DNA from: Haliotis cracherodii
Taxonomy: Eukaryota
NCBI RefSeq assembly: GCF_022045235.1
Contig: NW_027266275.1
Location: 27,280,001-27,344,000, forward strand
Length of the DNA stretch: 64,000 nt
Direction of reading: 5' to 3'
Shown: one piece after another, positions 32,022 through 62,349 of the stretch
Position numbering within the stretch: the stretch's first letter is position 1
Layout of the letters: each line of letters begins with the position of its first letter
Made by a program: the position numbers and the translations under genes
Notes under the pieces: model-generated
Told to the model about the DNA's origin: nothing
Seen by the model: only the letters and a program-made list of their open reading frames with translations
Databases searched by the model: none

Positions 32022-32082
32022 GGGGGGGGAAGAGAAAGGAAAGGGGGAGGAAAGGGGGGGGAGGGGGGGGGGCGGGGGGGGG
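31979..32082 (+). repeat. (GT)n microsatellite followed by a poly-G/purine tract
   Basis: About (GT)13, then ~25 G and further G-runs. Confidence 0.9.
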
Positions 32083-32764: not shown

Positions 32765-35700
32765 CTACTCCGGAATCCCCGCGGAGGTTGTTCTCATATA
32801 TCCTTCAGTTGTTTCAAATGCATTCACTGGTGAATGATAGGGAATTTACAAGCATTGTAACAGAAAACCCCTTTAACTCGATATAATAATGGCTAGAATG
32901 TGTTTTTACTAATAAAAACATATGTCTCCCCCTTCTTTCTTGAGACATTACTTCAAGTTGTTGTGTTTGCAAATCCGAAAAACAATAATATGCAAATTAT
33001 AGCCTGGAAATATAACGGTTTCATGCAGAAATATTCATCGCAAACATAGAAACAACGCTACTTATTTGAGACTTAGTCCAAATTGTTCCCCTGGAAACAC
33101 AACAAATTAGAAAAAATAAAATTGAAAAATATGAAAGGCAATACTTGAGCATGTAAGCCAAGCCAAGAGTTGTTTGAGATTAAGTCCAAATTGTTTCCAT
33201 GGAAACGTAACAAAACAAAATTAAGAAAACTTTCAAAATATCCAAAGTCACCAGTGAAAAGGATGAGCAATGCATAACCCAAGTTTCGTTGAAACATGTT
33301 GGGCAGTTCAAGATATGGCACGGACACGAACGTACTAATCTATACGCTTGTTTAAAACAATACTGACCGTGGTGTTCAGTGTTGGTTTCCTGGACGCCCA
33401 CGAGTGGCACATCCTCTTCGTCCAAGTCTTCCTTCTCGCGGGGGTTACGGGAAGGTTGACATGCTGGGACGAACAGCCACATGAAGCCCACAACACTCAC
33501 AACACACAACATACAGCCCAGGGCGATGACGATGATGGCTGTCGTGCTCAGTGGTGGGGTGACTGGAAGCAACATACCAGCGTTGTGTGTACATGTATAT
33601 TATCATGTAGGCTCATTTAAAATGGGTTGTTTTCCACTGATATAAATATATACACAACGAAAAGGTAAACACCGCTTTACTATGTATTTTCCATATAAAA
33701 TAGTCAATTTGAAAATCTTATCGTTTTGAAATTCTTTACAAAACACATATTTATTTATTTTTTAAATGTGTCATGCACAATTGGTTTTTTTTACAGAACT
33801 CAAACATATTTTGCCACTGTTGTTTGTTTGTTTGGTGTTTGATGTTTAACGCCGCACTCAGCAATATTTTAGCTATATGACGGCGGTTTGAAAATAGTCG
33901 AGTCCGGATCAGACAATCTAGTGGTTGACATCATGTACGTCGATCTACGCACTTGGGATACGATGACATGCATCAACCAAGTCAGCGAGCCTGACCACCC
34001 GAACCTTAGATGATTATGTTATCTTTTCTCATCATCCGACAAGAGTTGGGGAAGTGTTCCAACTAGATGATGTGTATTCACTATAACTGACATGTTACCT
34101 TCCATCCCTGGGCTGGTTGTTGTCGTGGTCGGTGCTGACGTGGTTGTCTGGCAGTATGCTGAGCAGGGCTGGGGTATCGCTTCGTACCCTACCCAGGGGC
34201 ACAGTTGAACACAGCTATCGCACCGGGACAGCGCCGTGTCGAAGTATAGCCCATACTGACACTGCTCAGTGGGGACTGCAAGTCAAAGATCAAGCGTCAC
34301 GCCGCAATACAACTGACTTTCTGTTCCTACTACTAATAGTCTCCTTATATAGTTTACGGTGTGGAATTTATAAGGCCTATTTTAAACATAAATGCAAATT
34401 TACATTCACCAAAGTTCTGAGAGTAATTTAAACTCTTTGTAGGGAATATAATTTACTGGGTAGAAGAAGCATACATCAAACAAGAGAATGCTTTATTTGG
34501 ATAAAGTTATCTGGATAAATTTCAAATTTAATCAGATTTTAATGTCTCTCGTTTGAGTGAAAGATCCAACGTCCCCAAAAAACATTTTATGGCCTAAATA
34601 GTTATCATATCTATGACCATATGCATGTGATGTGGGTGAATATTGTCTAATGCCGTTGACAGCAATGCTCCATCTATGTCGTGTCGGACTGTAAATCATC
34701 ACGTATGGACATGGCAAAACAGTGATTAAAAGCAGATAGATAATCACATTCGTCAGTAAGGTCACAAACATCGAACTCCGGGGACCAGTGCTACCCCGGA
34801 ATCCCCACATGGACTTAACATCAGATACCGGCGTACGTTTACATGTTATAAACACACATATTCATTAATGGGTCTTAACAAAATTTGTACCCCTTTTGGT
34901 CCTGTTGAATAAACAAAATTATAACTTAAAAATTCCAACTTTTAGTGATTTAACAAGAAACATCTAAACTTAACAAGTAGTTGGGTAAATTATGACAATA
35001 CAAAGAAACATAATTTTTGTCATATTTTAAATACACCGGAGAAACAGTAGAAATTTATTGTCCTTGGTGTAACCATTATACTTACCGATTATTTGCAGAA
35101 ATAAAAAATATATACAATATTTCTTTCACCGTATTATTGTTACACTAATATTTTACCTCTGCCTAGAAAAGAAAAAAAATCTAACTTTTAATATCACCAC
35201 GTTTTAAAACCTGGATCATCACTCTTTGTGGGAAATGAAGAGAAATATTTATCATTTTCTTTTCTCTGTGTACCCACACATTGCCAAAATGATCGATATA
35301 ATTTCAATATTCTTTATTTATTGAAAATGTTCTTTGTAAATCATGGTATGCAATGTGCCTTAACCTGAATCATTGTCATGTACCCATGTCGGAATCGAAC
35401 TCGGGTCTTCAGCGTGACGAGCGAAAGCTTTAACCACCAGGCTCTCCGACCGCCCCGTTACACCAAAGACAAAACCATTACTCATAACGACTTTTCTTTC
35501 ACATCACAATAGTTTATCAGAAGGAAATGATGCACAATATTTGGTGTTGCATATTTGCAATGGCAATTGACTTTTTTGTTTCACAAAGTTTTCGTTGAAG
35601 TTAATACTGCTGATTTGAGGTAACACCAAGGACATATTAAGTAACACCAAAGACAATTAGTGATTATAAAGGGACCTAAGTGAGGGTGTTTTCATAAATT

Positions 35701-37329
35701 TAAGTGTTAATTATGAGTTAAGAGTTGTAATGACAAAGGCACAAGACATGTTTTACCCTTTAACACTAACTTCAAAATTATTACTTGCTGACTTGTGGTA
35801 ACACCAAGGACATATTTAGTAACACCAAAGACACTTAGCTTCATCTAACTAAAGTCAGAATGTTTTAATAAAACACAAATATAAGTGTTAATATGATTAA
35901 AGAGTTTTAATTTCAATGTCACAAGACATTGCCCATTCTATGTTAATAATTGCTGACTTGTGGTAACACCAAGGACATTTAGCTCCATCTAACCAGATGT
36001 CAGAGTGTTTTAATAACAATACAAATTTAAGAGTTAATAGGATTAAAGAGTTTTAATTTCAATGTCACAAGACGTTGCCCATTCTATGTTAATAATTGCT
36101 GACTTGTGGTAACACCAAGGACATTTGACATTACATCATTATTAAGTAATACCAAAGACATTTTGTCATGATTTAGGTAACATCAAGGACAGTAACACCT
36201 TTTATCATGAAATAAAAATACAATTGACTGCTCACTGTACAGTAGCCGACAACATTCATTACCAGTGCATTTAACTCTTCTATTATGCATGTAAGGATGT
36301 TTTGAAAATGAAATAGTTTTCTTTGTAACACGGTTACACCAAAGACATGGGCATTACATATAGTGATGCTTGGTGTTGCCTTTTGTTCCAGTTTAAATAA
36401 CGTTTACTTCTGTTGACTCAAAAGAAATTCTCCGTGAAAGAGAGAAATTGATGTGATACTGGAACATTCATTTACCTTCTGTCTACATAAAGATGGATAA
36501 CTCTTACACCTAACTAAACAAATGGTAACACCAAGGACAGAAACATTTTGGACAGGCAGGCTTTGCTTATTTTTCATTATTTAAAGACAGAAACATAGAG
36601 GAAACTGATGTTTATTTTAAAGATTCTAATCACATTAGTAAAATAACGACATAATAACTCGTGTATATGACACAAAATATGAAATATGTTCACTGAAAAA
36701 TGCGTTCGGTGTCTATTGACAGTGGTATTTCAATAATTCAGACTATATACCACTCCACCACAAGTAAATAAAGCATAAATAATATTTTATTTTGGTTCCA
36801 CATTGAAGGGATATTAGGGATGGAAGTTAAGGGCTATCTCAAACTTTATTTAAGATAGAGATTACTGCCATAAAAAGGGTACATAATTTGATAATGACCC
36901 TCATATAAAATGCAGAACAATAGTATGGAATGGAAAATAAGAAAAAACTTGTTTATTTTGTCTTCTTACTTCTCAAATGACCCGATAGACCACAGGCCTT
37001 AGCGTCTTGTGTTCGGGGCCAAAGAGAAACTAGGGAATTCCATAATACTGCATTAGATTTAACTGCGCAGTTCGTGTTTTTCATTTAATCAATATATTTT
37101 AATGTATGGATCTGTAATATGATCACCATATCCCGAGTTTGACATGTTTTCATTTACCTATCCAATCTTTACATTTAAGATAATCTAGTTCTACGTCAAG
37201 ATCACGAGGATTGAATGACTTTACGTGTAAGACAAGAAAAGAGCTCTTACCGCCTTCGACATTGACAAGCGTTGTGAAAAACACAGAAGTTACGTAAAGA
37301 TAAACAATATTCCACTCTAAATTCGTCAT
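32765..37329 (-). CDS. TNFR-like gene C: BCMA/Grindelwald-type single-CRD type I membrane receptor, 170 aa, 4 coding exons
   Basis: Exon 37329-37251 encodes MTNLEWNIVYLYVTSVFFTTLVNVEG (signal peptide; donor GTAAGA). Exon 34275-34099 encodes VPTEQCQYGLYFDTALSRCDSCVQLCPWVGYEAIPQPCSAYCQTTTSAPTTTTTSPGME (CRD plus Thr-rich stalk; donor GTAACA). Exon 33562-33368 encodes TM AIIVIALGCMLCVVSVVGFMWLFV and tail ...PREKEDLDEEDVPLVGVQETNTEHH (donor GTCAGT). Exon 32826-32765 encodes VNAFETTEGYMRTTSAGIPE*. All junctions are GT-AG, phase 1 and in frame. Confidence 0.85.
33825..34005 (-). mobile_element. SINE S1 (truncated) in intron 2 of gene C
   Basis: Matches the 3' part of the S1 consensus. Confidence 0.75.
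34868..36902. mobile_element. ~2-kb non-autonomous DNA transposon (possibly Sola-like) in intron 1 of gene C
   Basis: Imperfect ~30-bp TIRs (GGGTCTTAACAAAATTTGTACCCCTTTT and AAAAAGGGTACATAATTTGATAATGACCC), and more than 10 internal GTAACACCAA[GA]GACA motifs. Confidence 0.55.
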
Positions 37330-37412
37330 GATAATATGAGTCTTGCTGGCACAGGCAGAACACGTCCACGCATGTGATACCCCGTGTATTCCCTAGATTA
37401 TGTCGTCATGTC

Positions 37413-37420
37413 TATTTATA
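37413..37420 (-). promoter_or_regulatory. TATA box of TNFR-like gene C
   Basis: TATAAATA on the minus strand about 85 bp upstream of the ATG at 37329. Confidence 0.5.
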
Positions 37421-38192
37421 TCTTTTGTATACACACGCAATGATATGTCAATGTTCTATTTATGGGTTAAGCGTCAGTGCCCCTATATAACTGTTACTTT
37501 CACCAAAAACCGCCGCCGCCACCACCACCACGGCACACGAGAGAAACGGACGCTACATCTAGACCTGTGGTAAGCAGAATACATTGTGTTATTTGTTAAT
37601 TTTTGTTTATTTTTGACTAAATAAAATAAATATTAGAAGAAAATTAATGTTCTTATTAATTTTTTATATTATCAACATATTTTACCCTAGGCAATATAGT
37701 CAAGATAAGTAATACCAAAACGTTTCCTTTTTAACAAAGACAAAACAATTAAATTGTGCTCAATAATAGTTTCGAATATTATTTTAACTTTTAAGAAACA
37801 AGAACTAAAAGATATATCAATCAATGTCGCATTGTATACATCAGGAAAGACAAATAACAACTTATTCAAGGCTCAATTTGGTACTATGAGGGTACAACAG
37901 CATCGTTATTTCGGATGGCACCATATATCCATTTGAAAATCTGCCAGATCAATGAATCTTTTTTTCCATTTCTTCCATTTTATTGAACAGATTAACGAAT
38001 CTTATAGAACACAAGAATATTGGCGTTCACCCTGGGTTTGTCAACATCCGTGCTGCTTGTTTAACCAGATTGCACAACGTCCGCGTCACTTTCAGTTTTT
38101 TTCGATTATAAACACGCCGTGACATGAACACGTGTTCAAAGTCGCTGGTATGAATCACGGAACAATGCCTTGTCTGCACGCAGCGCAGCCAC

Positions 38193-38299
38193 GGCCCCGT
38201 TTCACAAAGCAGCCTTAGCGCTAAGGCTTTCGTAACTCCCATACTTTTGCACAGACATACGATAATCGTAGCGCTAAGATCGCTTTGTGCAACGGGGCC
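38193..38299. mobile_element. Small Harbinger-like MITE
   Basis: GGCCCCGTTTCACAAAGC...GCTTTGTGCAACGGGGCC terminal inverted repeats. Confidence 0.6.
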
Positions 38300-38609
38300 C
38301 AGGTCGACTTTGTTGCTATTTTTGGTATCCGGGCACAACATGGTATGAAACCTGTGTGGGTTGTTCTGGTGTTGCTGTACATGTAAAGTGAAACCTCATT
38401 CGTCCGATAACCCCGACTTCCGGGTGATTACTGTTAGGAACGTCTAGATAAAAACAACGGGACATTACCCCGAACCTCTTATTCGTTTAATCCTTACGAC
38501 TTCACTTGGAACAACTATGTCCGCCTTAAGAGGGCAGTGCTGTTCTTTCGAGAAGCTGATTTGGAAACCTCCATTCGCTTTAGATTAATTAATCATCCAA
38601 CCCAACTTA

Positions 38610-38828
38610 CGGAAGCCTTTTAGGGCCATTTGTTTCTACTAAGATACTATGTTGAAATTTCAAGATACAGAAGCTGAAATTTCAAGATAGTATCTTGAAA
38701 ATTCAACTTCGTATCTTAGTAAAAACAAATGGACCTAAAAGGCCAAAACATTTCAACTTAGTATCTTGAAATCTCAAGATAGTATCGAATTTTATTTTTT
38801 TTAAACAAATGGCACTAAAAGGCTTCCG
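38610..38828. mobile_element. TA-flanked palindromic MITE
   Basis: TA|CGGAAGCCTTTTAGGGCCATTTGTTT...AAACAAATGGCACTAAAAGGCTTCCG|TA, with internal AAGATAC/GTATCTT repeats. Confidence 0.75.
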
Positions 38829-40654
38829 TACACTACATGTATCATGACCTTTTTTCCCTAATGGCTTTGATGCTAATCACGCCTTTGTTTATGGGTTTTA
38901 GTTAACATAAGTAATATGAACATGATTATATAGTCTGGCCCCCTTCATCAACATAACTTGGTTTCGGAAATGAAGTCTCTATCCCCATCACCACATCACA
39001 GAATGTCTCTCGTTCATTAAACGGGTTCCATTGTTGGTACGCGACGCAAGCTTAGCGTTTTTAGCCAACAGAGGACGGTAAAACAATAGTAAAAATCTGT
39101 ACCATATCCTCTTATAGCTGTGCATGCGTAACATCCATAGCGTTGTTCCAAATGCAAATATTCATGGAGACATGCGTTCACCTCTAAAGTTAGTTTTGGC
39201 CGACAATAATTACAACAAACTGCTCTGCTAGTGTTAATTTTGTTGCGAGCACTTTTACTTCACAAACAAACTTAACGTAATCCTCTATTTATTTCATTCG
39301 ATACCGAGGACCAATGAATGCTATGTTTAGTGTCGTCCAATCGAAGCCTATGACAAATCGGCCTCCGCCTGTCTAGACAGGCGACCAGTCAACTTGCTCA
39401 GGCGCAGGAACACTATCAAATGGCTCTTCTAAACGCTTAAGTAATGCCGATGCGACGTTAAATTTAACTCACTCACTCATTCAAAACGATATTTAGGCAC
39501 GGATCAAATTAGAAACCGCGGCCTCGTACACGCGTGCTCAAGATACGTTTAGTCGAATGAATGTTATAGATTAAAATTTAAAAAGATCTTTCCTTGGTAC
39601 ATGAATTATAAGTATTAGAAGTCTGTATGCTACCAGGCGTTACACGTTGGGTCTAAGAGGGCACACAAGTCTTGTACTGGTGATACGGCCGCTTGTGTCA
39701 ATCGTAAAGATGCTGGAAATTTGGCTGGAGATTTTTATTTTTTTTATTGAGCCTGAATAAGGAAAACACTTGCAGCAATGTCATTTTTGTGGCAATTTCT
39801 TTTTTTTTCCATAGCGTAAAGCATAATTATTTTTTTCAAGAATATCGGACTATTTTTAATATTGTGTCATTCGAACCTGACTCAAAACGAAGCCATGGTG
39901 AATGGGTCTGGAATATAGTGTAAAAGAGTTAACTAATGGAGGTATGATCCACGACACTACTCATTTGCTGCCTTGTGATTCTTGGTCTCGGTAAATAACA
40001 ACAAACGGGACATTGTTTGATAGAAAATTTATTTGCACACTTAAAAACAATGTAACCAATACAATATTAAGTAGCAAAGGTAACAACAGTCATAATATAA
40101 TTAGCCACGAATGAACTCAACTAGTTGTACCAAATCATGTATTGCCAGCAACCACGAATGTGGAATATATGCATTTAATTTAATCATTAAAAAAAACATT
40201 CCAGATGAACACATATAGGCAAACCCAACTAGCCATATTCCACAATGAAATCAGCATAAGGCCGGTCCACATGCAGCCCAAAATTCGCATCCGTGTTTAT
40301 AGATCCCAAATAGATCTATTGTCACTGGTCTTGGTGTCTGTATGTTTGTTTATAGTAACGATGGTGTACATAAAACAAACAAGAATACTATATGTATGAC
40401 AAGCGTTATTTTTAAATGACACCTACAAGGGCGGTGGCGACAGACAAGCGGTACAAACGTTGTCCGGGTTCAATTTCCCACATGGGTACAATATCTGAAG
40501 CTTATTTCTGGCCGCACCCCCATCCCCTACATGAACAATAAGTAGAAAAATGAGCCATTGCTCTTAAAATGTGATCGTCAACCAAGTCGTTGTAGACGTC
40601 CATCTGGGAGTCGGGAAGGCGTCACTGCTGTCCCCGCCTCCATCTGGGACTTGC

Positions 40655-42549
40655 CTACACAGCCGTGGTAGCGGTCACCGTCGCCGAAGTCACCTCTACA
40701 ACATGAACGTCAGAGCACCGTCAAAACGGAAATTCTTTCTGAACTTATCACTTCAATTTTACAAATAATGTCAGTTTATCTTTTTAATGTATTTGAAAAT
40801 GTCCCTCTGTACGTTCTTCAACACAGAGAGTGAAGGCAGGCGATATTTGACAATAGTGTTCTTGTTGAAGAGTAGCAATCATAAAACACTTCATATTGTA
40901 CTTCAGTTTTACCAGTTTTCAATTATGATATATTTCCTTTTATTGTGTATTTGTATTTATTCACCTGGTGAATTCTCTTGAACGCCTCGTTTTAAAAGCA
41001 TCGGCCTCCCCTCCAGTGTGATCTGCTTATGTTGTCTGGGTCGACGGTATTTCCACCAGAACCATATGGTGGTTCCAGTAGTAGCGACAGCAGCCACACA
41101 GACAATCGTTATTAGTGCTATGGCAGTCAGAGATATCCCCTCAGTTTTTCTACGTGGTCCTACTTCTGGTGGAATTGTTGCTGAAGCAAATTGTAATCTT
41201 ACATCAATAACTCCAATAGTTACGTAAACTATATTAATAAACTGTTGTTACTTATCGACCTGTTGATCACAGATTAACAAAACATTGTCACATGGCCGCT
41301 GAATGTGTAAATATATTTGAAAAAGAACACACCTATACAGCAGGATTGGATATGCCTTATATCACCTAGGAGTGTACAGAAGATATAACCCAGTAAAGAA
41401 CATACAGTTCCCATTAATTTCGCGCGGATAAACGAATATCTAGATTAACGAATTCTGCCTACGGAGTACTCTCTTGACATATTCAGACGTTTCAAACATC
41501 GTACTGTTGACTGCACTACTGATGATGCATTAAGTATACCAAACGTACATATGTAGCTACTCACTCGTGCTTGACCTACGTCCATCTTGGCCTCTGGTTC
41601 GAGTGCAGTAATCACGACACTGGTCAGGGGGCACTTCCGCCGGTACTCGGTCACAGTGAGGACCGCAGAGGTCACAGTTCAGGGTGACGTCGTCATAGTA
41701 ACGATCTTCTGGGCAGTTGTGCTTGTCCGGTGACCTCTTCGCGCAATAGGCAGTGCAAGACGCAGGAGGCTGAACCAGTGGTGCTCGGTCACAGTGGGGC
41801 ATGCAGTCATCGCAGTGTTCCGTCACGTCGTCATAGTAACGACCTTCCTGACATTTGTCTTCTTGACCTGGTCTCCGAGTCTTTAGTCCTTGACCTGAAT
41901 ATGTAATTTGGTAAATGTGAAAAATAGACAAATCAGTATATTTTATTTTGATATGAGAGCGGCTGGGGAGGGAATAGGGGGCGCAGTTGGTGTTTAACGT
42001 TGTTAAAAATTAAAAACAGATTAGTTCTCGCTACGTAAAAAGAAAACTGACTTGCGCGATAACCACGACAAACAATTATCGGACAGGAGTTATCTTTTGA
42101 TTGCCGCTAGGTGGTACTACGTACCTAGACATCAAAGCGAAAGTAGAAACTGGCAATTCCCGATTAAGGTAGGACGGGACACTCATTGCCTGTTTGCTTT
42201 AAATAAAATATACAGACTGAATTCATCCACAAATTGTATAAAAGGTACAGTCAAAGATATTCGAAATTAGTCTGTGAATACGTCATCTTGTATTTCCGAA
42301 ATGGTGATTACAAAGAGCAGGAAGTCTAATTAAGAGTATCTACCTGCAAAGAAGTATATTTTTCCATATTTAAAGCAACATCTTTCGATTTGTTTTATCT
42401 TGATAGCTGTTCAGACACCTTTTCGAAAGCCGAAGGATAAGGTTACCTGTACCTGTAGGGATATTTCCGGCTTTTAATGGCCTGGCCGAAACATGGTAGA
42501 CTGTCATCACCACGAACAAAACCATTTTCAATGACTTCCTCGTCGTCAT
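40655..42549 (-). CDS. TNFR-like gene B: TACI-like two-CRD type I membrane receptor, ~229 aa, 4 coding exons
   Basis: Exon 42549-42447 encodes MTTRKSLKMVLFVVMTVYHVSA|RPLKAGNIPTGT (signal peptide; an alternative donor would end the exon at 42453). Exon 41894-41565 has two CRDs, CQEGRYYDDVTEHCDDCMPHCDRAPLVQPPASCTAYC and CPEDRYYDDVTLNCDLCGPHCDRVPAEVPPDQCRDYC (donor GTGAGT). Exon 41180-40965 encodes TM ISLTAIALITIVCVAAVATTGTTIWFWW, then KYRR and ...KRGVQENSP (donor GTGAAT). Exon 40695-40655 encodes EVTSATVTATTAV*. All junctions are phase 1. Minus-strand AATAAA at 40033-40028. Confidence 0.88.
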
Positions 42550-43679
42550 CTTGGTGTTGTTTGAATGATTCACAATTTGATACTATAATGAATACAATAC
42601 GCCGAGCACTGCCTACAGTTATGATGAATCGTCTGGAGTAAGTGATGAAACATGAAAGCTTTCTCGAAACGTCGAAAGGGATCTATTTTTGACATGACTC
42701 TACAATTATAAATAGAACATGGGAAATCCGGTCAGATGTGACAGTCACCCATTACATCATTGACTCTGCATTTCTAACCCCACCCCAGCCCCTAAATATG
42801 TTTGTCAACTCGTACAAAAGGGGAGATTGAGTGCGTGAAGATTGTGTTACGCCGCAGTCGGAGATGTTCCAGCTGTATCAGGGCGGCCCGTACCTGAACG
42901 GTTCTGGGCCCGTCAGTCGGGTTGTTGACAGCATGAGCTGACCCGTATATGAAGATCTGGCTTTTGGCTGGGATAGCACCTGCCAAATGTTTTCGCTCCA
43001 GTATCCGTTTATACGTTTACTTCGCTATTAAATACATGCTATGACGAAAGCTCGAGGTACAGGCGCCCCTCGAGTCAATCGTCGACGATGGCATGTATTC
43101 ATATTATTAAAAAATGTGTTTCAAAATCAAAGAAGATCCACGGTTGGCACACGACCTTTGGATGAAAACGAGACCCAATGAATATGGACATAGTGTGTTT
43201 CTTGTCTACGGGAAGTAGTCATCGCGAGAGAAAGCTAAAAGACAGCTAGTGTCCATACACGATTAATCATCAGGAGTTCACACATTTATCATGTAAGGGT
43301 GTGTGTTCTCGATGCAATAAAACAATCCAATGAAGCACAACAGGAAATACTTTCAAGCTCCAAATGTCTTTTTTTTGCAATGCCTTCTTTCTCAATAAAA
43401 AATTGAATAACGTTCCCAGTATGTTTAGATGAGGGGATTCCAATGTGTCTCCGAAAAATAGAAAAGGCGTCACCTTAAAAAATTGTTGTGGTGACAGACA
43501 TTAACAGTGAGTGAGTGAGTTGGGTTGAGCGCCACAGTGAACTTTATTTCGGTTTGTGGGCATTTGAATATCCCCTATTGGCACCAACGTTCTGTAAACC
43601 CAAATATTCCGATTACAAATTTATGAACCAGAAAAACTCGACAGATTCCAGTTTTTCCCTGCATCGTTCACGGGTTCTT

Positions 43680-43945
43680 AAAAGATAACATGTATGTACA
43701 ATTTGGGGATAGGACATTTAATCAAGAAGGAGACATCCTCATTGACACCAATGTACTCCCCTCTTTGCGAATCTATTTCTTTATGCATATGAATCGGGAT
43801 TTTTGCTCAGACTGGTAAAATCGAAACACGGGAATTTGGCAAAGAACTTCAGCTTCAGGTATGTCGATGATCCGATATTGTTTAATAATGGACATGTAGT
43901 CAATTCCATTTCACTGATTTACCCACCGGAACTAGAAAAAAAGAG
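43680..43945 (+). mobile_element. Degenerate Penelope-like retroelement reverse-transcriptase fragment
   Basis: Frameshifted translation QFGDRTFNQ...PLFANLFLYAYESGF.LRLVKSK..LAKNFSFRYVDD..LFNN..V.SISLIYPPELE, including the YVDD catalytic motif. Confidence 0.75.
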
Positions 43946-43974
43946 ACACGTGAACCCCCAAGTGAATTTAGGGT

Positions 43975-45470
43975 TTATCGTTCAGGACGCATGGTACACT
44001 CGGGTTATAATTCAGGACACGTGGTACAGGGTATAGGCCAAGGCACATGGTACAGGGGATAGTTCAGGACACGTGGTACAGTCAGGGTTTAGTCCAGGAC
44101 ACGTGGTCCAATCAGTGTATAGTCCAGGACAGGTGGTACAGTCAGGGTATAGTCCAGGACACGTGGTACTGTCGAGGTATAGTCCAGGACACGTTGTACA
44201 GTCAGGGCATAGTCCAGGACACATGGTCTAGTCAGGGTATAGTCCAGGACACACGGTACAGTCGGGTATAGTCCAGGACACATGGTACAGTCAGGGTATA
44301 GTCCAGGACACATGGTACAGTCAGGGTATGGTCCAGGACACATGGTCCAGTCAGGGTATAGTCCAGGACACATGGTTCAGTCAGGGTATAGTCCAGGACA
44401 CATGGTACAGTCAGGGTATAGTCCAGGACACATGGTACAGTCAGGGTATAGTCCAGGACACATGGTACACTCGGGTATAGTCCAGGACACATGGTACAGT
44501 CAGGGTATAGTCCAGGAAACATGGTCCAGTCAGGGTATAGTCCAGGACACATGGTCCAGTCAGGGTATAGTCCAGGACACATGGTACAGTCAGGGTATAG
44601 TCCAGGACACACGGTACACTCGGGTATAGTCCAGGACACGTGGTACAGTCAGGGCATAGTCAAGGACACACGGTACACTCGGGTATAGTCCAGGACACAT
44701 GGTACAGTCAGGGTATAGTCCAGGACACATGGTACACTCGGGTATAGTCCAGGACACATGGTACAGTCAGGGTATAGTCCAGGAAACATGGTCCAGTCAG
44801 GGTATGGTCCAGGACACACGGTACACTCGGGTATAGTCCAGGACACATGGTACAGTCAGGGCATAGTCCAGGACACACGGTACACTCGGGTATAGTCCAG
44901 GACACATGGTACAGTCAGGGTATAGTCAAGGACACATGGTCCAGTCAGGGTATAGTCCAGGACATATGGTCCAGTCAGGGTATAGTCCAGGACACGTGGT
45001 ACAGTCAGGGTATAGTCCAGGACACATGGTACAGTCAGGGTATAGTCCAGGACACATGGTCCAGTCAGGGTATAGTCCAGGACACATGGTAGAGTCAGGG
45101 TATAGTCCAGGACGCTTGATACAGTCAGGGTATAGTCCAGGACACTTGATACAGTCAGGGTATAGTCTGGGACACATTGTACAGTCAGGGTATAGTCCAG
45201 GACACTTGATACAGTCAGGGTATAGTCCAGGACACTTGATACAGTCAGGGTATAGTCTGGGACACTTGATACAGTCAGGGTATAGTCCAGGACACACGGT
45301 ACACTCGGGATATAGTTCAGGACAGGTGGTCCAGTCAGGGTATAGTCCAGGACACATGGTCCAGTCAGGGTATAGTCCAGGACACTTGGTACAGTCAGGG
45401 TATAGTCCAGGACACATGGTACAGTCAGGGTATAGTCCAGGACACATGGTACAGTCAGGGCATAGTCCAG
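43975..45470. repeat. 29/30-bp minisatellite (CAGGGTATAGTCCAGGACACATGGTACAGT), ~50 units
   Basis: Direct tandem repeats with interspersed 29-bp CGGG...TACACT variants. It accounts for the many overlapping ORFs in this region. Confidence 0.95.
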
Positions 45471-46743
45471 TATTGTGACACTTTCCATTCGCCAGTAGAT
45501 TTACACTTGTATGTAAAGTGCACACATGTTTATAGGTGTTAGCTGAATGTTTTTGTTCACATATGTTTACAATAGCAGGTATATATGTATCATTGCCCTC
45601 AGTGCTAATTTGCACGTAATGTGTAGTCAGACGATTCTGCGTAGTCGTGGTGACAGAAGCGGGCGTAAAATGTGGACTTTAGCACAAGCTGTGACAAATT
45701 ATCTCGATATCAACTTACAATAGTATTAGATGTGATAATGAAACATTATTGCCTGTGCACTAACTTCACTATAGGTTATGTACGCACGACAATATAGGTT
45801 GTGCGCCTTGCGACAAACTAGAATGTTCACCTTCAGCAATAAAGGTTGTGTATCTGCAACAATATGTACTATGCAGTATATGCGCAGTACAATATAGGTT
45901 GTGTAGCTACGTCAGCATAGGCTTTGACTACGGCTACAGAGGGTATACAATATACGATGTGCGATATATCGAACGTTTCTTGGATGTGCATGTGAGCAAG
46001 CATGCGTCAAAAGTTTATTTGTTGTTTTTTTAATTATAATTGAACATGAACTGAATTCAGCAAATGAATTTCCCAATGCTTCACTTTCTGCTTTGAGCTG
46101 ATAATAACTTGAATGCTCAAGATAAGAATTTGAATTTTCAAGATGAAAAATAATTATGTGGCCCATATGGGCTTCCGTACAAAATACGGAGATTAGCCTT
46201 TGTTTCAGTTGTCCCAGTAGTCGCCCGGATGTTGAATGCAAGACGATATAAACTGCAGATTTAAGCCCTCGGAGAGTCATTCGTTGCATCGCATTAACAT
46301 TTAAATTAATACTTGAAACATCGAAGTACAATGTAGGTAGATTAACGGAATTCAAGCATTGCAGTTCATTTGGCGGTAACAACAACAGTCTGATAAGCGA
46401 CGCCAAGGAAATAATACTATGCAGTCGTGATCCGAGCATCATGAAGTCAATATCCTAAGAAAGGTATATCCACCTCTTGCAGGTCACGTGGTATTCAACT
46501 CTCGCCAGAGACCGATAACACCATTTGCATGATATTGATTATAACATAAATGACCGTATAACCCGGGGAACAATAGTCGTCGCCATTTATGCAACAATAG
46601 CCCGTATATAATACCTATACGGCTGTAAGTAGCATATATGTACATTTATCTAAATCGATATGCGGCTTCGGGTTAGTGTTGTCACAGCGGAGGACGGACC
46701 GTAAGTCCTGTGGTTTTATCAGTGTAGCAGAAGAAGCGTCAAG

Positions 46744-47580
46744 ATGCCGTTCAGTTTGTTGAAGTTTTTTAAACTCCGTCAGGAGAAAGAGGACACCATG
46801 GCTGATCTCGATGCGGTGACCTCCGACATTGGGGAGATTAAAACAACTTCTTACAAACAGTTGGAGACCTCGGATACACCGCCCCCAGCTGCGCGCGGTG
46901 TTACTGATGCAGGCTGCAACAAAACAAGCGCTGAGGATCAAACAAACAACTACGTTCCTATCAGAAGATCGAGTACAAAGAAACGGACAGTTCCGTCCAT
47001 TTTGAAAGAAGATGTGTTCAAAACAGATGTTCCAGAAAAAAATGCAACGGCACCGGAAGCTGCTGGAATAGACAACAATTCAAAGAAAACACCGGACACA
47101 GACAAAACAGACGACAGTTCACTGAAAACTCCGGACACAAACAAAACAGACGACAGTTCACCGAAATCTCCCGACACAAACAAAACAGACGACAAATATC
47201 TTAAACCTCTGGACACGAACAAAACAGACAACTCACAGAAAACTCCAGAAACGGACAAAACAGAGGACAATTCACAGAAAACTTCGGACACGGACAAAAG
47301 TGAAAAACTAAAACATAAACAAAACGAAGCAAAGCTACAGAAGTGTAAGTCTAAAATACCCAAGTCGGTGTCATTTTCAAAGAATCTTATCCACGAGAAC
47401 GGTGCAGAAGACAACAGGCGCAAGGTTATCAGAAGATCCAGCACACGGACGAGAGCCATCCCCACCATTTTAAAAGCTGATTTTCTTAAAGGTGAGCAAC
47501 CTGGTCAGACGGAAGGACAAGAAAATGTTGGAAAGAGATTCTACTTCGGCTTCAAGGACAAAACAAAAGATCCTAACTGA
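46744..47580 (+). CDS. Intronless 278-aa low-complexity (K/D/T-rich) protein with candidate PP1-docking motifs (SILK, KSVSF)
   Basis: Longest non-satellite ORF in the window, with an ATG start and a TATA-like TATATAA near 46605. It contains about 6 degenerate KTPDTDKTDDSS repeats, a duplicated IRRSST-x4-[VI]P[ST]ILK-x-D-x-x-K block, and KSVSF at 47362-47376. Confidence 0.65.
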   Translation: MPFSLLKFFKLRQEKEDTMADLDAVTSDIGEIKTTSYKQLETSDTPPPAARGVTDAGCNKTSAEDQTNNYVPIRRSSTKKRTVPSILKEDVFKTDVPEKNATAPEAAGIDNNSKKTPDTDKTDDSSLKTPDTNKTDDSSPKSPDTNKTDDKYLKPLDTNKTDNSQKTPETDKTEDNSQKTSDTDKSEKLKHKQNEAKLQKCKSKIPKSVSFSKNLIHENGAEDNRRKVIRRSSTRTRAIPTILKADFLKGEQPGQTEGQENVGKRFYFGFKDKTKDPN

Positions 47581-54418: not shown

Positions 54419-54578
54419 NNNNNNNNNNNNNNNNNNNNNNNNNNNNNNNNNNNNNNNNNNNNNNNNNNNNNNNNNNNNNNNNNNNNNNNNNNNNNNNNNN
54501 NNNNNNNNNNNNNNNNNNNNNNNNNNNNNNNNNNNNNNNNNNNNNNNNNNNNNNNNNNNNNNNNNNNNNNNNNNNNNN
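54419..54578. other. Assembly gap (160 N)
   Basis: Run of N. Confidence 1.
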
Positions 54579-55743: not shown

Positions 55744-55964
55744 GGCTAAAAAAATAATAGTCTTGGTTCTCAGGCACCACCCGCATCATCACAAAGTCTG
55801 CCACACCTTTTGTTTTTATTTCCATTTTTTTTTAAATATAAAAATCCCATTACTTTAACACAATGCACACAAAAATTGAAAATTGAAACAAAAACGAAAT
55901 GTGGGATGAACTTTATGATGATGTGGGCAGTGCCTGAGAATCAAGACCATTATTTGTTTTAGCC
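55744..55964. mobile_element. PIF/Harbinger-like MITE, second copy
   Basis: TAA|GGCTAAAAAAATAATAGTCTTGGTTCTCAGGC...GCCTGAGAATCAAGACCATTATTTGTTTTAGCC|TCA. Confidence 0.65.
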
Positions 55965-56470
55965 TCACCCAGGCATAAGCAAATGTTCAAATGACACACT
56001 GATACAGACTTGGGATGAAGTCTGTAGTTGCCATGGTGTATGTAACACGTACGTGCCATTCTCATCAGTTACTGTGCAACAACCTGTCATGTGAAAATCC
56101 TTTGTCCTCAGGAAGTCTATATATGTCTGGCTCACTTAGATGTTTTTGTGACCATTGACACTCTTTGGAAACATAGCAGCAGATTTCAGTAGTAACTTCA
56201 CGTAAAGGGAGCATAGTAATATACCACTAGTATCTGAGGAATGAATTGCTATTATGTGTGTTTGGTCTAGCGAATTACAATGGTTTAATGTGAAGGCCAA
56301 GATAACCTTTGGAATGATGGCGTGTGTTGAAACCTGACATTATGTAAGTTGAATTACCTCCCCTTGTCAACAAAGTACAACAGGCTGAATACATTGCTTG
56401 ACATCAATGAAAGGGAGTTTACACTTCCTGACAAATGGCATGGGTACCTTGTCATAACACTAATCTTAAA

Positions 56471-58533
56471 GCTCCTATATCTAGGGGTACCAGAGCTCCT
56501 ATATCTAGGGGTACCAGAGCTCCTATATCTAGGGGTACCAGAGCTCCTCTATCTAGGGGTACCAGAGCTCCTATATCTAGGGGTCCCAGAGCTCCTATAT
56601 CTAGGGGTACCAGAGCTCCTATATCTAGGGGTACCAGAGCTCCTATATCTAGGGGTCCCAGAGCTCCTATATCTAGGGGTACCAGAGCTCCTATATCTAG
56701 GGGTCCCAGAGCTCCTATATCTAGGGGTACCAGAGCTCCTATATCTAGGGGTACCAGAGCTCCTATATCTAGGGGTACCAGAGCTCCTCTATCTAGGGGT
56801 ACCAGAGCTCCTATATCTAGGGGTACCAGAGCTCCTATATCTAGGGGTACCAGAGCTCCTATATCTAGGGGTACCAGAGCTCCTATATCTAGGGGTACCA
56901 GAGCTCCTATATCTAGGGGTACCAGAGCTCCTATATCTAGGGGTACCAGAGCTCCTATATCTAGGGGTACCAGAGCTCCTATATCTAGGGGTACCAGAGC
57001 TCCTATATCTAGGGGTACCAGAGCTCCTATATCTAGGGGTACCAGAGCTCCTATATCTAGGGGTACCAGAGCTCCTATATCTAGGGGTACCAGAGCTCCT
57101 ATATCTAGGGGTACCAGAGCTCCTATATCTAGGGGTACCAGAGCTCCTATATCTAGGGGTACCAGAGCTCCTATATCTAGGGGTACCAGAGCTCCTATAT
57201 CTAGGGGTACCAGAGCTCCTATATCTAGGGGTACCAGAGCTCCTATATCTAGGGGTACCAGAGCTCCTATATCAAGGGGTACCAGAGCTCCTATATCTAG
57301 GGGTACCAGAGCTCCTATATCTAGGAGTACCAGAGCTCCTATATCTAGGGGTACCAGAGCTCCTATATCTAGGGGTACCAGAGCTCCTATATCAAGGGGT
57401 ACCAGAGCTCCTATATCTAGGGGTACCAGAGCTCCTATATCTAGGGGTACCAGAGCTCCTATATCTAGGGGTACCAGAGCTCCTATATCAAGGGGTACCA
57501 GAGCTCCTATATCTAGGGGTACCAGAGCTCCTATATCTAGGGGTACCAGAGCTCCTATATCTAGGGGTACCAGAGCTCCTATATCTAGGGGTACCAGAGC
57601 TCCTATATCAAGGGGTACCAGAGCTCCTATATCTAGGGGTACCAGAGCTCCTATATCTAGGGGTACCAGAGCTCCTATATCTAGGGGTACCAGAGCTCCT
57701 ATATCTAGGGGTACCAGAGCTCCTATATCTAGGGGTACCAGAGCTCCTATATCTAGGGGTACCAGAGCTCCTATATCAAGGGGTACCAGAGCTCCTATAT
57801 CTAGGGGTACCAGAGCTCCTATATCTAGGGGTACCAGAGCTCCTATATCTAGGGGTACCAGAGCTCCTATATCTAGGGGTACCAGAGCTCCTGTATCTAG
57901 GGGTACCAGAGCTCCTATATCTAGGGGTACCAGAGCTCCTATATCTAGGGGTACCAGAGCTCCTATATCTAGGGGTACCAGAGCTCCTATATCTAGGGGT
58001 CCCAGAGCTCCTCTATCTAGGGGTACCAGAGCTCCTATATCTAGGGGTACCAGAGCTCCTATATCTAGGGGTACCAGAGCTCCTATATCTAGGGGTACCA
58101 GAGCTCCTATATCTAGGGGTACCAGAGCTCCTATATCTAGGGGTACCAGAGCTCCTATATCTAGGGGTACCAGAGCTCCTATATCTAGGGGTACCAGAGC
58201 TCCTATATCTAGGGGTACCAGAGCTCCTATATCTAGGGGTACCAGAGCTCCTATATCTAGGGGTACCAGAGCTCCTATATCTAGGAGTACCAGAGCTCCT
58301 ATATCTAGGGGTACCAGAGCTCCTATATCTAGGAGTACCAGAGCTCCTATATCTAGGAGTACCAGAGCTCCTATATCTAGGGGTACCAGAGCTCCTCTAT
58401 CTAGGGGTACCAGAGCTCCTATATCTAGGGGTACCAGAGCTCCTATATCTAGGAGTACCAGAGCTCCTATATCTAGGGGTACCAGAGCTCCTATATCTAG
58501 GAGTACCAGAGCTCCTATATCTAGGGGTCCCAG
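56471..58533. repeat. 24-bp minisatellite (GAGCTCCTATATCTAGGGGTACCA), ~86 units
   Basis: Near-perfect tandem array that produces the 700+ aa repeat ORFs in three frames. Confidence 0.97.
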
Positions 58534-59892
58534 ATAAAAAAGTGCAGCAGCAAACCTCAAAGAACCCTGGACCCCAAAATTTCTAACACTGAGGAAATCA
58601 GACTGCAACTATTTCTTGAATTAGCCATTAATTGGCTGACATGGGAACAAAAAATAAATATATTCAAAGACACTCCATTATGACAATAGCTTAACAAAAA
58701 TATAATTTTGTATATATTAAGTACATTCATAAAATCCTGTACACCCTGAGTGTAGCACATGTAAAAAAATTATCATTACAATTTCAAAAGCTACAAAGAT
58801 ATGATTTGGTGGCATATTTCAATTTAACAATTAGATCTATTTTGTGACTGCCACTGGACTTTAAGTATGGTAATTCAAAGAACTATCTGGATAACTTTTG
58901 ACATGACAAGTAAGTGACGTCACAACACACATTATGATGTCATGATGTCTGTACAAGCCAGCCCCCTCGTATAGGTCTTTACGACATGAAGACTGGCCAA
59001 TCAGATGGCTACATTTTTCAACAAGTAATGTGAGAAATGGGGTTTAACGTTGTGTCCAAGTTTATTGCACTTATATAGCGTGTGTGCATGCATCCCAACC
59101 CAAGATGTGACTGTCAGTGGATTGTGTTGAGTGAGCGATTGTTCTTTCACGCTGTCAGCAGAATTCCAGCTAAATCATGAATATTTATAGGTAATGATTC
59201 TGGTCCAGGAAAACCAATCATTAGTGGTAGTGGGAGACTAGCATACAGTCTAGGAAAACTTTCATTACACACTTCAATTCTCGCCTCTAATTATTAAAGA
59301 CTTGCTTTTTTATATTCTAGATTGACTTGGTTTCATAAAATACAGATATTCCAGTCATGGTTCAGGACTACAGTAGTGGGGGAGCACGGACTGCTTGATG
59401 TTTCGGTGTGATGACACACAATCAGCCACGTCACGCCTTTTGATCACCCTATCCCCTCTTTAAGAGGCGTGGCCTAAATGTAAATGTCCGATTAGGATTT
59501 TAAATTTTCCGGACCCCTGCCCTCTTATCATGCGCCTCTTACAACAAGTAAGGGACGCTTGGGGCTCTCCCCATGGACTCCCAACAGGGTCAGGGCTGAG
59601 TTGAACACCACTGTCAGCAATGTTTAGCTATGAGCATAGTGGCTTGCACATTATCAACTGGGTTGGGATCTAACCAGTGATTGATGGTGTGAGCATGAAA
59701 CCACATATTGGTGTGTATGCTACAGTCAGCCAGGCCACGGCCTCAGGATTGTCTCCCCTATTGACCTTTCATCCAATCACTGTCCCTTCTTAGAGGACAT
59801 TGTCACCAACCAATTTTCATTTTAGTCGCCTCTTACAACAATCATGGGTTACTGGAACCTATTCTGCCCCAGAGGGCAAGCAGATTGCTGGT

Positions 59893-62349
59893 TTAATTCC
59901 CAGAATAGTCTTCGCCAGTCAAGAGATGATCACCAGCGCGACTTCCTGTAAAAGACAATTCCAAACATTAGTTTCAAAACATGAACATCATGATTATTTC
60001 TACAGCCAAACATTCTTAAACATCATGATTGTCAGCCATGTTTGTAGGTTCTCTATATTTTAGTTGTCATCATGGAAGAGTTCAACAAACATTTGGTGGG
60101 TGGAAACAAATCATTACGTGAGTTAAATACAAAGATGGTCATGAACAGGATCACAAAATTATTTGAGTACCATCTTGATGTGATGCAAACAAACCATTAT
60201 GTTTGTCAATAAACAGTTGGGTCATGTTTGTTTGTTTGTTGTTTAACGACGCACTCAGCAATATTCCAGCTATATGATGGCGGTCTGTAAATAATCGAGT
60301 CTGGACCAGACAATCCAGTGACTGATATCTTGAGCATCGATCCACACAATTGGAATTCGATGACATGCAATCAACCAAGTCGGCCAGTCTGACCACCAGA
60401 TCCTCTTAGACAAGCATAGTCGCCTTTTATGGCAAGAATTGGTTGCTGAGGACCTATTCTACCCCGGATCTTCACAGGTGAAGTTGGGCCATGAATAGGG
60501 TCACAAAGTTATTATACAGTAGTAGCAGTTCAGTGGGTTGCAAACAAACCAATTTGTCACATATTGCCCCTACCTATACACAGCTCAGCGAAGCCCATAT
60601 CATCCTGCTGCACAGGTGTGTTGTCACTGGGCTGGGCAACAAGTGCAGTCGCCTGGGCAACAAGTGTAGTTGCTTGGACAGCATTGGTAGAAGTCTGATC
60701 TGGGCGTCGGAACCTCCTCCAGAGAAACACCAGTACTATGACCATGACCACCATCACACCACAGGAGATGGACACTAGCATGGAGACATTCACCGGGGTA
60801 GATGCTGGTCCGTCCTGCCCCGCATGTCCAGCTTGGAAGAACTCTAGACAAGACATAACAATAAATGTACACAGTATTTTTTATTTTTTTTGTTTAACGC
60901 CGCACTCAGCAATATTCCAGCTATATGAAGGCAGTCTGTATATAATCAAGTCTGGACCAGACAATCAAGTGATTGACATCATGAGCATCGATCCACGCAA
61001 TTGGGATACGATGACATGCATCAACCAAGTCAGCGAGCCTGACCACCTGTTAGTCACCTCTTACGACAAGCATAGTCGCCTTTTACGGCAAGCATGGGTT
61101 GCTGAAGACTATTCAGGTATTGTACACAGTATAAACAGTGACTTAACATAAGTGAAACTGTAAATAAGGTAACCATACTCTGTTCATACTGCACTGCTAG
61201 GTTATTTTCAGATGGGATGATTCTAAATTCATATTAAATTGCCTGTGCTATTAAAGATACATGTATATGTGGACAATATTTCAAACTCTGGTGAGCTTAA
61301 CAAATTTGAAATACTCTCTAAATATATTTCCAACACATTTTCTGATCAAAATATCTTGTCACATACATGAGAAACAGTATTTTCCAGCAAATGGGCATTT
61401 TATAACCTTGATTTGACATTATGTTTTAGATGGAATCACTACCGACCTGGACTGAGTAAGATCATCTTCCCGAGGCAAGGGAGATAACTGACTATAAAAA
61501 GTCCAGTTTCCACCCTTGCCCAAATAGGCTGGAATTATGGAGTTATATTTTGGCTGAACTAATGAGACTATGCATAGTCCAATCAAAATTTTTCAACGAA
61601 ATTAACATCTGTTTCGTAAACTGCAGTGCAGTTTTTGGTCGATTGCAGGATTTGCAAAGCATGTGTACCAACAAACTTAGCATCAACAGATATTTTCCCA
61701 ATCATTTCATGTTTTGAATCAAGGTGCTCGTGTGATTTGACGCACTTCGTGTAGTAAAAACCCATTTTATTACAATATAGATCTTGATTATCAACCAGAC
61801 CATTTCACTGGGCGATGCCGTTTTAGTTGAAGCCAATGTAAGTGACATGAGAGGTGAAATCTGATTGGTCAATGGGAGGGACATAGAAGGGACATAACTC
61901 ATAATTGCCACTGGTGGCGCTACAGTCAAGCCCAGAAATTCCAGCCTTGTTTGGCAAGGGTAGAAACTGGACTTTAACAGTCAGTTAACTCCCTTGCCTT
62001 GGGAAGATGGCAAAGATGTGTTCTCGTTGGAATATTAGTTTCCATATTGAGGCATGTTTAAATATTCTGATCTTAAATCTTTGCAGTGAACATGCTGCAG
62101 GTTCATTGGGAGGCATACAATTACCTCTACATACAACTCATTTTACAATGTAAACAGACACACATTTTATATCTTTGACAGGGCAAATGTGTTAACAGTT
62201 ATGGCAACAGTGTTGGATGAAGTACCTGGACAAAACTTGTTGCAGTCAGAGTTAGGATCCTTCAAGTACTCCCAATAGCAGATCTCATTACACCCCTGGC
62301 ATCTGCTAACAGCCTTGTCATAGTACTGGCCACTTTGACAGTGCTTCAT
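59893..62349 (-). CDS. TNFR-like gene A: BCMA-like single-CRD receptor, probably type III (no signal peptide seen), ~148 aa
   Basis: Exon 62349-62226 encodes MKHCQSGQYYDKAVSRCQGCNEICYWEYLKDPNSDCNKFCP (donor GTACTT). Exon 60843-60574 encodes EFFQAG..., TM MLVSISCGVMVVMVIVLVFLW, RRFRR and ...TPVQQDDMGFAELCI (donor GTAGGG). Exon 59945-59893 encodes GSRAGDHLLTGEDYSGN*. Phase-1 junctions are in frame. The last exon and the true N-terminus are less certain. Confidence 0.8.
60227..60478 (-). mobile_element. SINE S1 in last intron of gene A
   Basis: Full-length copy with TSD-like AGTTGGG[TC]CATG flanks. Confidence 0.8.
60890..61112 (-). mobile_element. SINE S1 in intron of gene A
   Basis: Matches the S1 consensus. 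Confidence 0.8.
61463..62009. mobile_element. Non-autonomous DNA transposon with ~70-bp TIRs in intron of gene A
   Basis: CATCTTCCCGAGGCAAGGGAGATAACTGAC...GTCAGTTAACTCCCTTGCCTTGGGAAGATG. Confidence 0.75.

Follow-up and report, generated by a model that had tools for sequence, protein, structure and literature searches.

Structure of the three putative receptor genes

Three genes, referred to here as 62k, 41k, and 34k, were found on the minus strand of the window, the 64,000-nucleotide stretch of Haliotis cracherodii DNA analyzed in this study. The original prediction of three co-oriented genes with GT-AG exons was confirmed: the exon models were identical, letter for letter, to three H. cracherodii proteins that NCBI annotates as "uncharacterized", and all eight introns were GT-AG and of phase 1. 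Each protein was predicted to have a cysteine-rich domain (CRD), a single transmembrane (TM) helix, a short tail, and no death domain. Each gene indeed encodes a single TM helix followed by approximately 45–65 aa of tail, and Pfam detected a death domain in none of the three proteins (0/3), but the middle gene, 41k, carries two CRDs before the TM helix.

Gene 62k corresponds to the NCBI protein P0172 (148 aa, listed without an accession). Its first exon (62226–62349) encodes the start Met and a single CRD (62340–62230), the second (60574–60843) a stalk, the TM helix, and a tail with PxQxxD and GF-x-E-L motifs, and the third (59893–59945, from the NCBI model) the tail end and stop codon. The model contains no signal peptide, as the Met directly precedes the CRD, and the Met stands three residues before the first cysteine in the NCBI models of all four Haliotis orthologues. 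In a scan upstream of the gene that recovered one of two positive controls and failed on the true exon of gene 34k, the first 1.6 kb contained no signal exon; a single weak candidate lay beyond the window, at a distance of 3.5 kb. Gene 62k is probably a type III protein like BCMA and TACI. A perfect palindromic NF-kB site lies at 63779–63789, 1.4 kb upstream of this gene.

Gene 41k (XP_071107139.1, P0001, 227 aa) begins with a signal-peptide exon (42453–42549), with a second donor site 6 nt downstream that yields isoform X1. Exon 2 (41565–41894) holds tandem CRDs (41853–41743 and 41715–41605), a pair that is an internal duplication. Exon 3 (40965–41180) encodes the TM helix and tail and was joined on both sides, the intron 41564–41181 and the joint 40695/40965 both being supported by sequencing runs X1, X3, and X5. 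In the model, exon 4 (40655–40695) ends in T-T-A-V, a PDZ-type C-terminus; H. rufescens isoform X2, the counterpart of this gene, has the identical end.

Gene 34k (XP_071107422.1, P0107, 156 aa) starts with a signal-peptide-like exon at 37251–37329. This NCBI-supported exon replaced a hydrophobic candidate at 37558–37498, where a stop immediately follows the ATG. Exon 2 (34099–34275) encodes one CRD (34261–34151) and a Thr-rich stalk, and was joined in run X5 to exon 3 (33368–33562), which encodes the TM helix and tail. The last six codons and the stop lie in exon 4 (31685–31704), as in the NCBI model; contig 1 of run X1 agrees, joining 33367–33562 to 31703–31446. The left limit of the cluster, originally placed at 32765, was thus incorrect, as the gene ends at 31685. 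For the candidate exon 32826–32765, whose stop coincides with that limit, no support was seen; it could be an alternative exon. Overall, transcript-like contigs joined four introns of genes 41k and 34k, from sequencing runs that are presumed, not labelled, to be RNA. The suggested check of junctions by reads covered these two genes and supported splicing in both.

Features and affinities of the cysteine-rich domain

All four window CRDs fitted the predicted minus-strand pattern C-x4-Y[YF]D-x5-C-x2-C-x3-C-x11-C-x3-C (x11 counted on translations), which occurred in none of 60 shuffles of the window. The domain is approximately 40 residues long, with six invariant cysteines in 35/35 abalone CRDs. 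A C1–C2 gap of 12 residues was found in all four window CRDs and in 146 of 192 cores, as was a C4–C5 loop of 11 residues (again 4/4 and 146/192). The aromatic-aromatic-Asp hairpin had been regarded as the hallmark of BCMA and TACI. Its spacing does match BCMA, but the ligand-binding hallmark given in PMC8024323 is the D-x-L hairpin tip, and Leu at D+2 was present in 0 of the 34 abalone CRDs scored, variable residues occupying this position instead. Across 177 cores, Leu was found in eight, six of them in TACI-like vertebrate-type rows. In a FastTree analysis of the 192 cores, relations between mollusc and vertebrate domains were not resolved, and the TACI-like rows formed no single supported clade. 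Judged by cysteine spacing, the abalone CRD is a BCMA-spaced hairpin joined to Grindelwald-spaced helices; because of this mixed spacing and the missing D-x-L leucine, the family is not considered orthologous to any one receptor.

The proposed resemblance to BCMA, TACI, and Grindelwald was borne out by the rankings of profile, fold, and language-model searches, although each score was weak. TACI and BCMA ranked at the top, followed by BAFF-R, Grindelwald, and Fn14. When a profile of 35 abalone CRDs was compared with PDB sequences, TACI or BCMA made up 12 of the top 13 rows (best E 0.0012); Fn14 appeared with E 2.5, and Grindelwald was absent from the 26 matches at E ≤ 10. The Pfam profile BCMA-Tall_bind matched gene 41k exon 2 with E 2.4e-5 and 24.8 bits (gathering cut-off 27). 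The best scores of PF09257 and PF09305 were both below cut-off (24.8 against 27 bits and 18 against 22.9, respectively), and in a genome scan with PF09257 none of 15 matches, mostly noise, exceeded it.

For fold comparison, an AlphaFold model of CRD1 was used (pLDDT 67, pTM 0.40); a single-sequence model of P0001 was discarded (pLDDT 51.6, CRDs under 50). The model comprises strands at 8–11 and 16–19 and helices at 21–26 and 36–40, the hairpin-plus-helices topology that PMC8024323 describes for Grnd, BCMA, TACI, and Fn14. Its nearest Foldseek matches did not belong to an unrelated fold, which would have spoken against the original prediction: ranks 1–11 were all BCMA (E 0.03–0.15), with TACI next and nothing at E ≤ 0.001. 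In the VIA comparison with 48,161 chains, only three rows reached Z ≥ 2 (range 2.0–2.2), namely BCMA, BAFF-R (Z 2.2), and Grindelwald. The predicted CRD thus appears to adopt a TNFR-type fold, with weak scores (Foldseek E 0.03, Z about 2). ESM features of P0172 gave 0.93 for TACI and BCMA, 0.91 for Grindelwald and BAFF-R, and 0.90 for Fn14. The proteins are also built like TNFR superfamily members, with one or more extracellular CRDs that have a CXXC core and precede a single TM helix. No single similarity score is strong; four different methods placed the same small-TNFR class first.

It was also expected that annotation based on TNFR_c6 (PF00020) would miss these genes. Consistently, the three proteins carry the label "uncharacterized", and the four window CRDs all went unmatched in a genome scan at E ≤ 0.1. 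That scan gave 31 PF00020 matches, 18 over the cut-off and only one in the small-receptor family, the classical CRDs lying on other contigs; 3 of 35 family members scored weakly on PF00020.

Family expansion and signaling potential

The window had been described as a local cluster of three genes. The expansion is real, but its size was understated more than tenfold, as the window trio is a satellite of a far larger cluster 2 Mb away with 40 further complete CRD exons. The abalone family comprises some 30 genes, which together encode approximately 45 complete CRDs and were all found on a single contig. A TM helix follows the CRD in 93 of the 121 relatives with a full CRD; relatives carry up to four CRDs per protein, and most members have a signal peptide. 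In the CRD exons, pN was lower than pS in all 14 closest paralogue pairs, and selection on them looks purifying rather than diversifying. NF-kB sites were rejected as evidence: the eight matches in the window were a count reached in 11 of 100 shuffles and hence chance, and the main cluster had 36 per 330 kb compared with 24 per 240 kb outside.

In the tails, dereplicated at 40%, the major TRAF motif was found in 24 of 65 (12.7 ± 3.0 when shuffled) and PxQxxD in 8 of 65 (1.3 ± 1.1 when shuffled); neither value was reached in 1000 shuffles, a test that overstates significance because the tails are partly related even after dereplication. TRAF6 motifs were not enriched (7/65 against 4.7 expected). 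The major motif was present in none of the three window tails, and PxQxxD, a canonical TRAF motif, only in gene 62k, where it is kept in two of four orthologues and absent in H. rubra and H. asinina. P[VIT][QE][EQ], C[ST][QE]E, and [AG]F-x-[DE]-L were also enriched but were not counted as tests because they were picked after viewing the tails. With their weak TRAF motifs, the three window genes may be low-signaling or modulatory members.

The genome contained 64 TNF-domain matches and four TRAF MATH domains; multi-exon TNF domains lie on contigs C31 and C10. Four abalone TNF domains or exons were compared with the PDB, and the best match was TRAIL/RANKL, CD40L, or TNF and never BAFF, APRIL, EDA, or Eiger; the ligand tree, in which one row was read on the wrong strand, was used only for clades. 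Taken together, the window genes probably encode functional, single-pass, small death-domain-less TNFR proteins of the BCMA/TACI/BAFF-R/Fn14/Grindelwald type that would signal through TRAFs and belong to a lophotrochozoan family that was expanded in abalone by tandem duplication. Of this reading, the analysis shows the gene structures, the splicing of two genes, the protein topology and fold class, the size of the family, purifying selection, TRAF-motif enrichment across the family, and genomic ligands and TRAFs, whereas ligand binding, the identity of the ligand, the downstream pathway, and an immune role are inferred. A trimeric abalone TNF ligand would bind three CRDs via the beta-hairpin and helical module and thereby cluster the tails. 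TRAF trimers would then be recruited by the tails, with PDZ scaffolds as additional partners in some members, and the signal would pass to JNK and/or NF-kB with no death domain recruiting caspases.

In one alternative, the fold is of the TNFR type but the members, above all the window three, serve as decoys, as scavengers, or as modulators that need no ligand, rather than as signaling receptors. The short, divergent tails, the major TRAF motif missing in the three window tails and in 41 of 65 family tails, and the tail end of gene 34k, which differs in the H. rubra orthologue, agree with such a role. TRAF motifs are nevertheless enriched across the family, and GVQEN and the T-T-A-V end (41k) and the YSGN end (62k) are kept across Haliotis orthologues, so that we consider it unlikely.

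Even less probable is that the genes encode diversified receptors that recognize something other than TNF, be it a microbial pattern or some other secreted protein, their rapid tandem expansion reflecting a recognition arms race. The dense tandem cluster with broken copies (six partial matches), the variable residues replacing the D-x-L tip, and weak scores of the N-terminal hairpin against the chitin-binding CBM_14 would suit this, but the CBM_14 matches span only part of the domain, the CRD exons look to be under purifying selection, and the same genome has expanded TNF ligands. Convergence of an unrelated disulfide-rich module (furin-like, EGF, toxin-like, or LDLR) on six cysteines might be suspected from so small a domain with weak scores, from some relatives annotated as "laminin alpha-like" or "PCSK5-like", and from the lower-ranking Foldseek and PDB rows, which include EGF, LDLR, and toxin folds. 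As the same small-TNFR class came first by four methods, with BCMA C1–C2 spacing and matching receptor architecture, it is very improbable. The TRAF-signaling small-TNFR reading was therefore preferred.

Comparison with known receptors

Section 11 of the preprint 10.1101/2021.12.26.474206 refers to four human TNFRs with one or two CRDs that could not be traced to an invertebrate ancestor; although that text does not name them, we infer that they include BCMA, TACI, BAFF-R, and Fn14. A molluscan family of this size that resembles them provides sequence depth for testing the origin of BCMA-type receptors and their link to Grindelwald, and suggests that the receptor type predates B cells and was multiplied in molluscs. 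A broader proposal, to which we give slightly less than even chances, is that a single pre-vertebrate receptor lineage gave BCMA, TACI, BAFF-R, Fn14, and Grindelwald and that the abalone-type family is its lophotrochozoan branch, with a CRD bridging vertebrate and insect forms and with signal-less type III members. Its approximately 30 receptors, all "uncharacterized" and more numerous than the classical TNFRs detected, would have co-expanded with approximately 55–60 TNF ligands as a combinatorial cytokine code. If molluscan TNF receptors are counted with TNFR_c6, at least half of the repertoire may be overlooked, and the overlooked small receptors could explain what the many molluscan TNF ligands bind. 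In addition, NF-kB activation by invertebrate TNF systems, treated as open in Marin 2020 (PMC7674686), becomes directly testable with tails bearing TRAF2/3-type motifs.

Classical molluscan TNFRs (TNFR_c6) belong to the same superfamily and share the CXXC core, but their CRDs lie on contigs other than that of the small-receptor family. Fn14 (TNFRSF12A) and BAFF-R (TNFRSF13C) are likewise small, single-CRD, TRAF-binding, and death-domain-less, although their sequence match is weaker. Fn14 has a signal peptide, as do most abalone members, and the BAFF-R CRD is only partial.

Compared with BCMA, the abalone six-cysteine CRD has an identical C-x4-aromatic-aromatic-D-x5-C-x2-C-x3-C spacing, and one or two CRDs, one TM helix, and the lack of a death domain are shared with BCMA and TACI. 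These two are type III proteins without a signal peptide (PMC6001812), as gene 62k probably is, whereas a signal exon is present in genes 41k and 34k. Further differences are the lack of Leu at D+2, the C4–C5 loop (8 residues in BCMA and 5 in TACI-CRD2, compared with 11 in most family cores), and the ligands, as no BAFF/APRIL-like one was identified.

Grindelwald, whose partners are Traf2 and Lin-7/Veli, is also a small-CRD receptor with the CXXCXXXC signature, a TM helix, and no death domain. Its disulfides, like those of Fn14, are nested, whereas BCMA and TACI have crossed ones. According to PMC8024323, its C2 consensus equals the abalone helical-module spacing C-x3-C-x11-C-x3-C, but it has eight cysteines with an X2 hairpin as opposed to six. 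The system had been suggested to be little-described; grnd-like receptors of molluscs (bivalves) and annelids are, however, already reported in bioRxiv 10.1101/2024.07.27.603686, which lists Crassostrea virginica, Mizuhopecten yessoensis, and Capitella (12 paralogues). The abalone genes show the CXXCXXXC signature and TM helix (within 80–120 aa) of its grnd-like definition, which also requires a match to an in-house HMM, and the abalone-type family probably overlaps with those bivalve genes. In its main text, BCMA and TACI occur 0 times and Haliotis for a ligand only, and the largest receptor number is 12, compared with approximately 30 genes in abalone. Thus, the scale of the family in abalone and its link to BCMA and TACI appear to be new.

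Splicing and structure of the window genes

The four cysteine-rich domains (CRDs) of the three window genes, named by position, were located on the minus strand by six-frame translation: one in gene 62k (62340-62230), two in tandem in gene 41k (CRD1, 41853-41743; CRD2, 41715-41605), and one in gene 34k (34261-34151). All four fitted the cysteine pattern given in the original prediction, which was matched 0 times in 60 shuffles of the window. The canonical gene structures it had proposed were also upheld, as all eight introns were GT-AG and in phase 1, and the exon models were letter-exact with NCBI proteins of 227 (gene 41k), 156 (gene 34k), and 148 aa (gene 62k) annotated as "uncharacterized"; these exact protein matches assign the window to the abalone Haliotis cracherodii.

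Splicing was assessed by aligning contigs of four public sequencing runs, presumed to be RNA and apparently from relatives of H. cracherodii, to 31000-44000, which covers genes 41k and 34k. Joints were recovered for both genes. Among the joints displayed, junctions 41180/41565 and 40695/40965 of gene 41k were joined in at least three of the four runs, and the intron between the CRD and transmembrane (TM) exons of gene 34k was joined in run X5. Run X1 joined the TM exon of gene 34k to 31703; therefore, its last exon was placed at 31704-31685 (minus strand), and the left boundary, previously set at 32765, was moved approximately 1 kb further left, to 31685. At 40625-40695, 30 nt were absent from H. 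rufescens isoform X1, in which the tail differs and the T-T-A-V end is missing, and run X16 showed a 30-base gap in the same region. This difference may reflect a splice variant that switches a PDZ-type end on or off, or an allele.

As modelled, gene 62k had no signal peptide, and its start Met was common to all four species models. Signal-less CRD proteins accounted for 15 of 127 non-vertebrate-type proteins (17 of 132 including two TACI-like ones), counts that may include isoforms or truncated models. A perfect palindromic NF-kB-type site (63779-63789, minus strand) was found 1.4 kb upstream of gene 62k, close to an AT-rich box and to a splice donor; NF-kB-type sites were not statistically enriched in the window or the main cluster.

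Elsewhere in the window, a 216-codon coiled-coil-like open frame occurred in two 97% identical copies (12413-13060 and 17778-18425, plus strand) within a 5.4 kb duplication, and had 45 matches genome-wide, many as tandem arrays on contig C2. A single-copy 291-codon open frame with a 39-bp repeat (46705-47580, plus strand) lay in the interval separating gene 41k from gene 62k. Neither frame matched a Pfam family. Minisatellites at 44027-45470 (30 bp x48), 56470-58534 (24 bp x86), and 20572-21533 (23 bp units) accounted for the window's longest open frames.

The family in abalone and beyond

The family is real and bigger than originally reported. When the double-CRD exon was searched against the H. 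cracherodii genome, further copies appeared at 25.1-25.3 Mb on contig C12. In addition, 600 kb of genome stretches and the window were scanned with a profile of 35 CRDs (threshold, at least 15 bits), and 46 matches were found at 25.04-25.37 Mb, 39 with six cysteines in one frame and six partial or broken; the remaining one, cut by the stretch edge, was complete in sequence L006. Together with the four in the window and one at 81.08 Mb, this gave 45 complete CRDs in roughly 30 genes, grouped by eye from adjacent exons rather than annotated. The predicted local expansion was real, but its size of three genes was too small. Querying the whole genome with a central member yielded 45 matches, 44 of them on C12. 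One outlying member, separated from the cluster by 54 Mb, carried one complete and one shortened CRD (G000:C12:81081626 and 81084147; L096 and L097).

The expectation that TNFR_c6 annotation would miss these genes was borne out, as PF00020 matched none of the window CRDs among the candidates scored. With 150 of 175 genome candidates scored, PF00020 gave at least 31 matches, 18 above the cut-off; only one belonged to this family and none lay in the window. Most copies look constrained, since each of the 14 most similar paralogue pairs, chosen from all pairs, had a pN lower than its pS. The window trio probably predates the split of H. cracherodii, H. rubra, and H. rufescens because in H. rubra the orthologues of genes 34k and 62k map to contigs of equal size, and in H. 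rufescens those of genes 41k and 62k carry LOC numbers next to each other.

The family profile matched 249 representatives at E<=0.001, with 150 of them listed. Among 161 proteins analysed, the full-length CRD was found in 121 and a TM segment behind it in 93; most remaining proteins were long repeat proteins matching the hairpin half only. The named sources among 20 looked-up proteins were Haliotis, Gigantopelta (5), Nucella, Littorina, Mercenaria, Potamilus, Solemya, and the nemertean Lineus. Five matches resembled vertebrate TACI, as judged by eye. The ESM Atlas held mollusc clusters of 62-123 members labelled "hypothetical" or "putative TNFR-Cys".

Tails, ligands, and a proposed mechanism

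We infer a function in which a TNF trimer would probably bind the receptor, followed by probable receptor clustering, TRAF recruitment, and JNK and/or NF-kB output. Of 65 dereplicated tails, 24 contained the major TRAF motif, scored in its wider form [PSAT]x[QE]E, and eight contained PxQxxD, compared with 12.7 and 1.3, respectively, after shuffling; TRAF6 motifs were not enriched in this comparison. As none of the three window genes carried the major motif, they are poor examples of such tails. The published form of this motif is Px(Q/E)E (PMC6125299). The C-terminus of gene 41k, T-A-V, is a possible PDZ ligand, recalling the Lin-7 binding of Grindelwald. A post hoc motif, [AG]-F-x-[DE]-L, was present in nine of the 65 tails against 0.1 shuffled (e.g., window 60574-60600).

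The genome contained four TRAF MATH domains and 64 TNF-domain (PF00229) matches. Because some of these matches are two halves of one split gene, they corresponded to approximately 55-60 ligand loci, in several tandem clusters (G000:C67 34.2-51.8 Mb, C7 33.9-34.1 Mb, and C31 0.19-0.30 Mb), exceeding the 27 given as the mollusc maximum in the accessible text of 10.1101/2024.07.27.603686. The C7 copies were almost identical, and those on C31 and C10 had the domain divided between two exons. The four ligands tested were most like TRAIL/RANKL, CD40L, or TNF; none came closest to BAFF, APRIL, or Eiger.

Identity of the domain and known receptors

Profile and fold comparisons were consistent with the receptors named in the original prediction. 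On Pfam, BCMA-Tall_bind and TACI-CRD2 were best or near-best, under the cut-off, and with the family profile TACI and BCMA filled 12 of the top 13 rows against PDB sequences (E 0.0012-0.017). For CRD1 of gene 41k, AlphaFold predicted a hairpin and two helices (pLDDT 67); Foldseek placed BCMA at ranks 1-11 and TACI at 14, with nothing at E<=0.001. VIA returned BCMA, BAFF-R, and Grindelwald only (Z 2.0-2.2), and ESM features of gene 62k gave TACI, BCMA, Grindelwald, BAFF-R, and Fn14 at 0.90-0.93. Each score is weak alone, and the evidence is their agreement.

This receptor class is already known in outline: 115 grnd homologues, some from two bivalves and 12 from Capitella, were reported for a set of 148 proteomes in a preprint whose main text, as accessible, mentions neither BCMA, TACI, nor gastropods, and whose supplementary table could list members of the abalone family (bioRxiv 10.1101/2024.07.27.603686). 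Searches of open-access literature, which largely excludes subscription journals, showed nothing on the abalone cluster or a mollusc link to BCMA/TACI (related work, in accessible portions: 10.1101/2021.12.26.474206, PMC8024323, PMC7674686, PMC6001812, PMC6125299, PMC3697994, and PMC11463336). The abalone expansion, hybrid domain, and probable type III member (gene 62k) appear undescribed in the searchable literature.

The abalone CRD has the hairpin spacing of BCMA, whereas the D-x-L leucine of BCMA/TACI is missing; it has the x3-x11-x3 helical-module spacing of Grindelwald (PMC8024323), whereas the extra disulfide of Grindelwald is missing. We infer that the domain works like these receptors, and it stands outside BCMA/TACI and Grindelwald proper.
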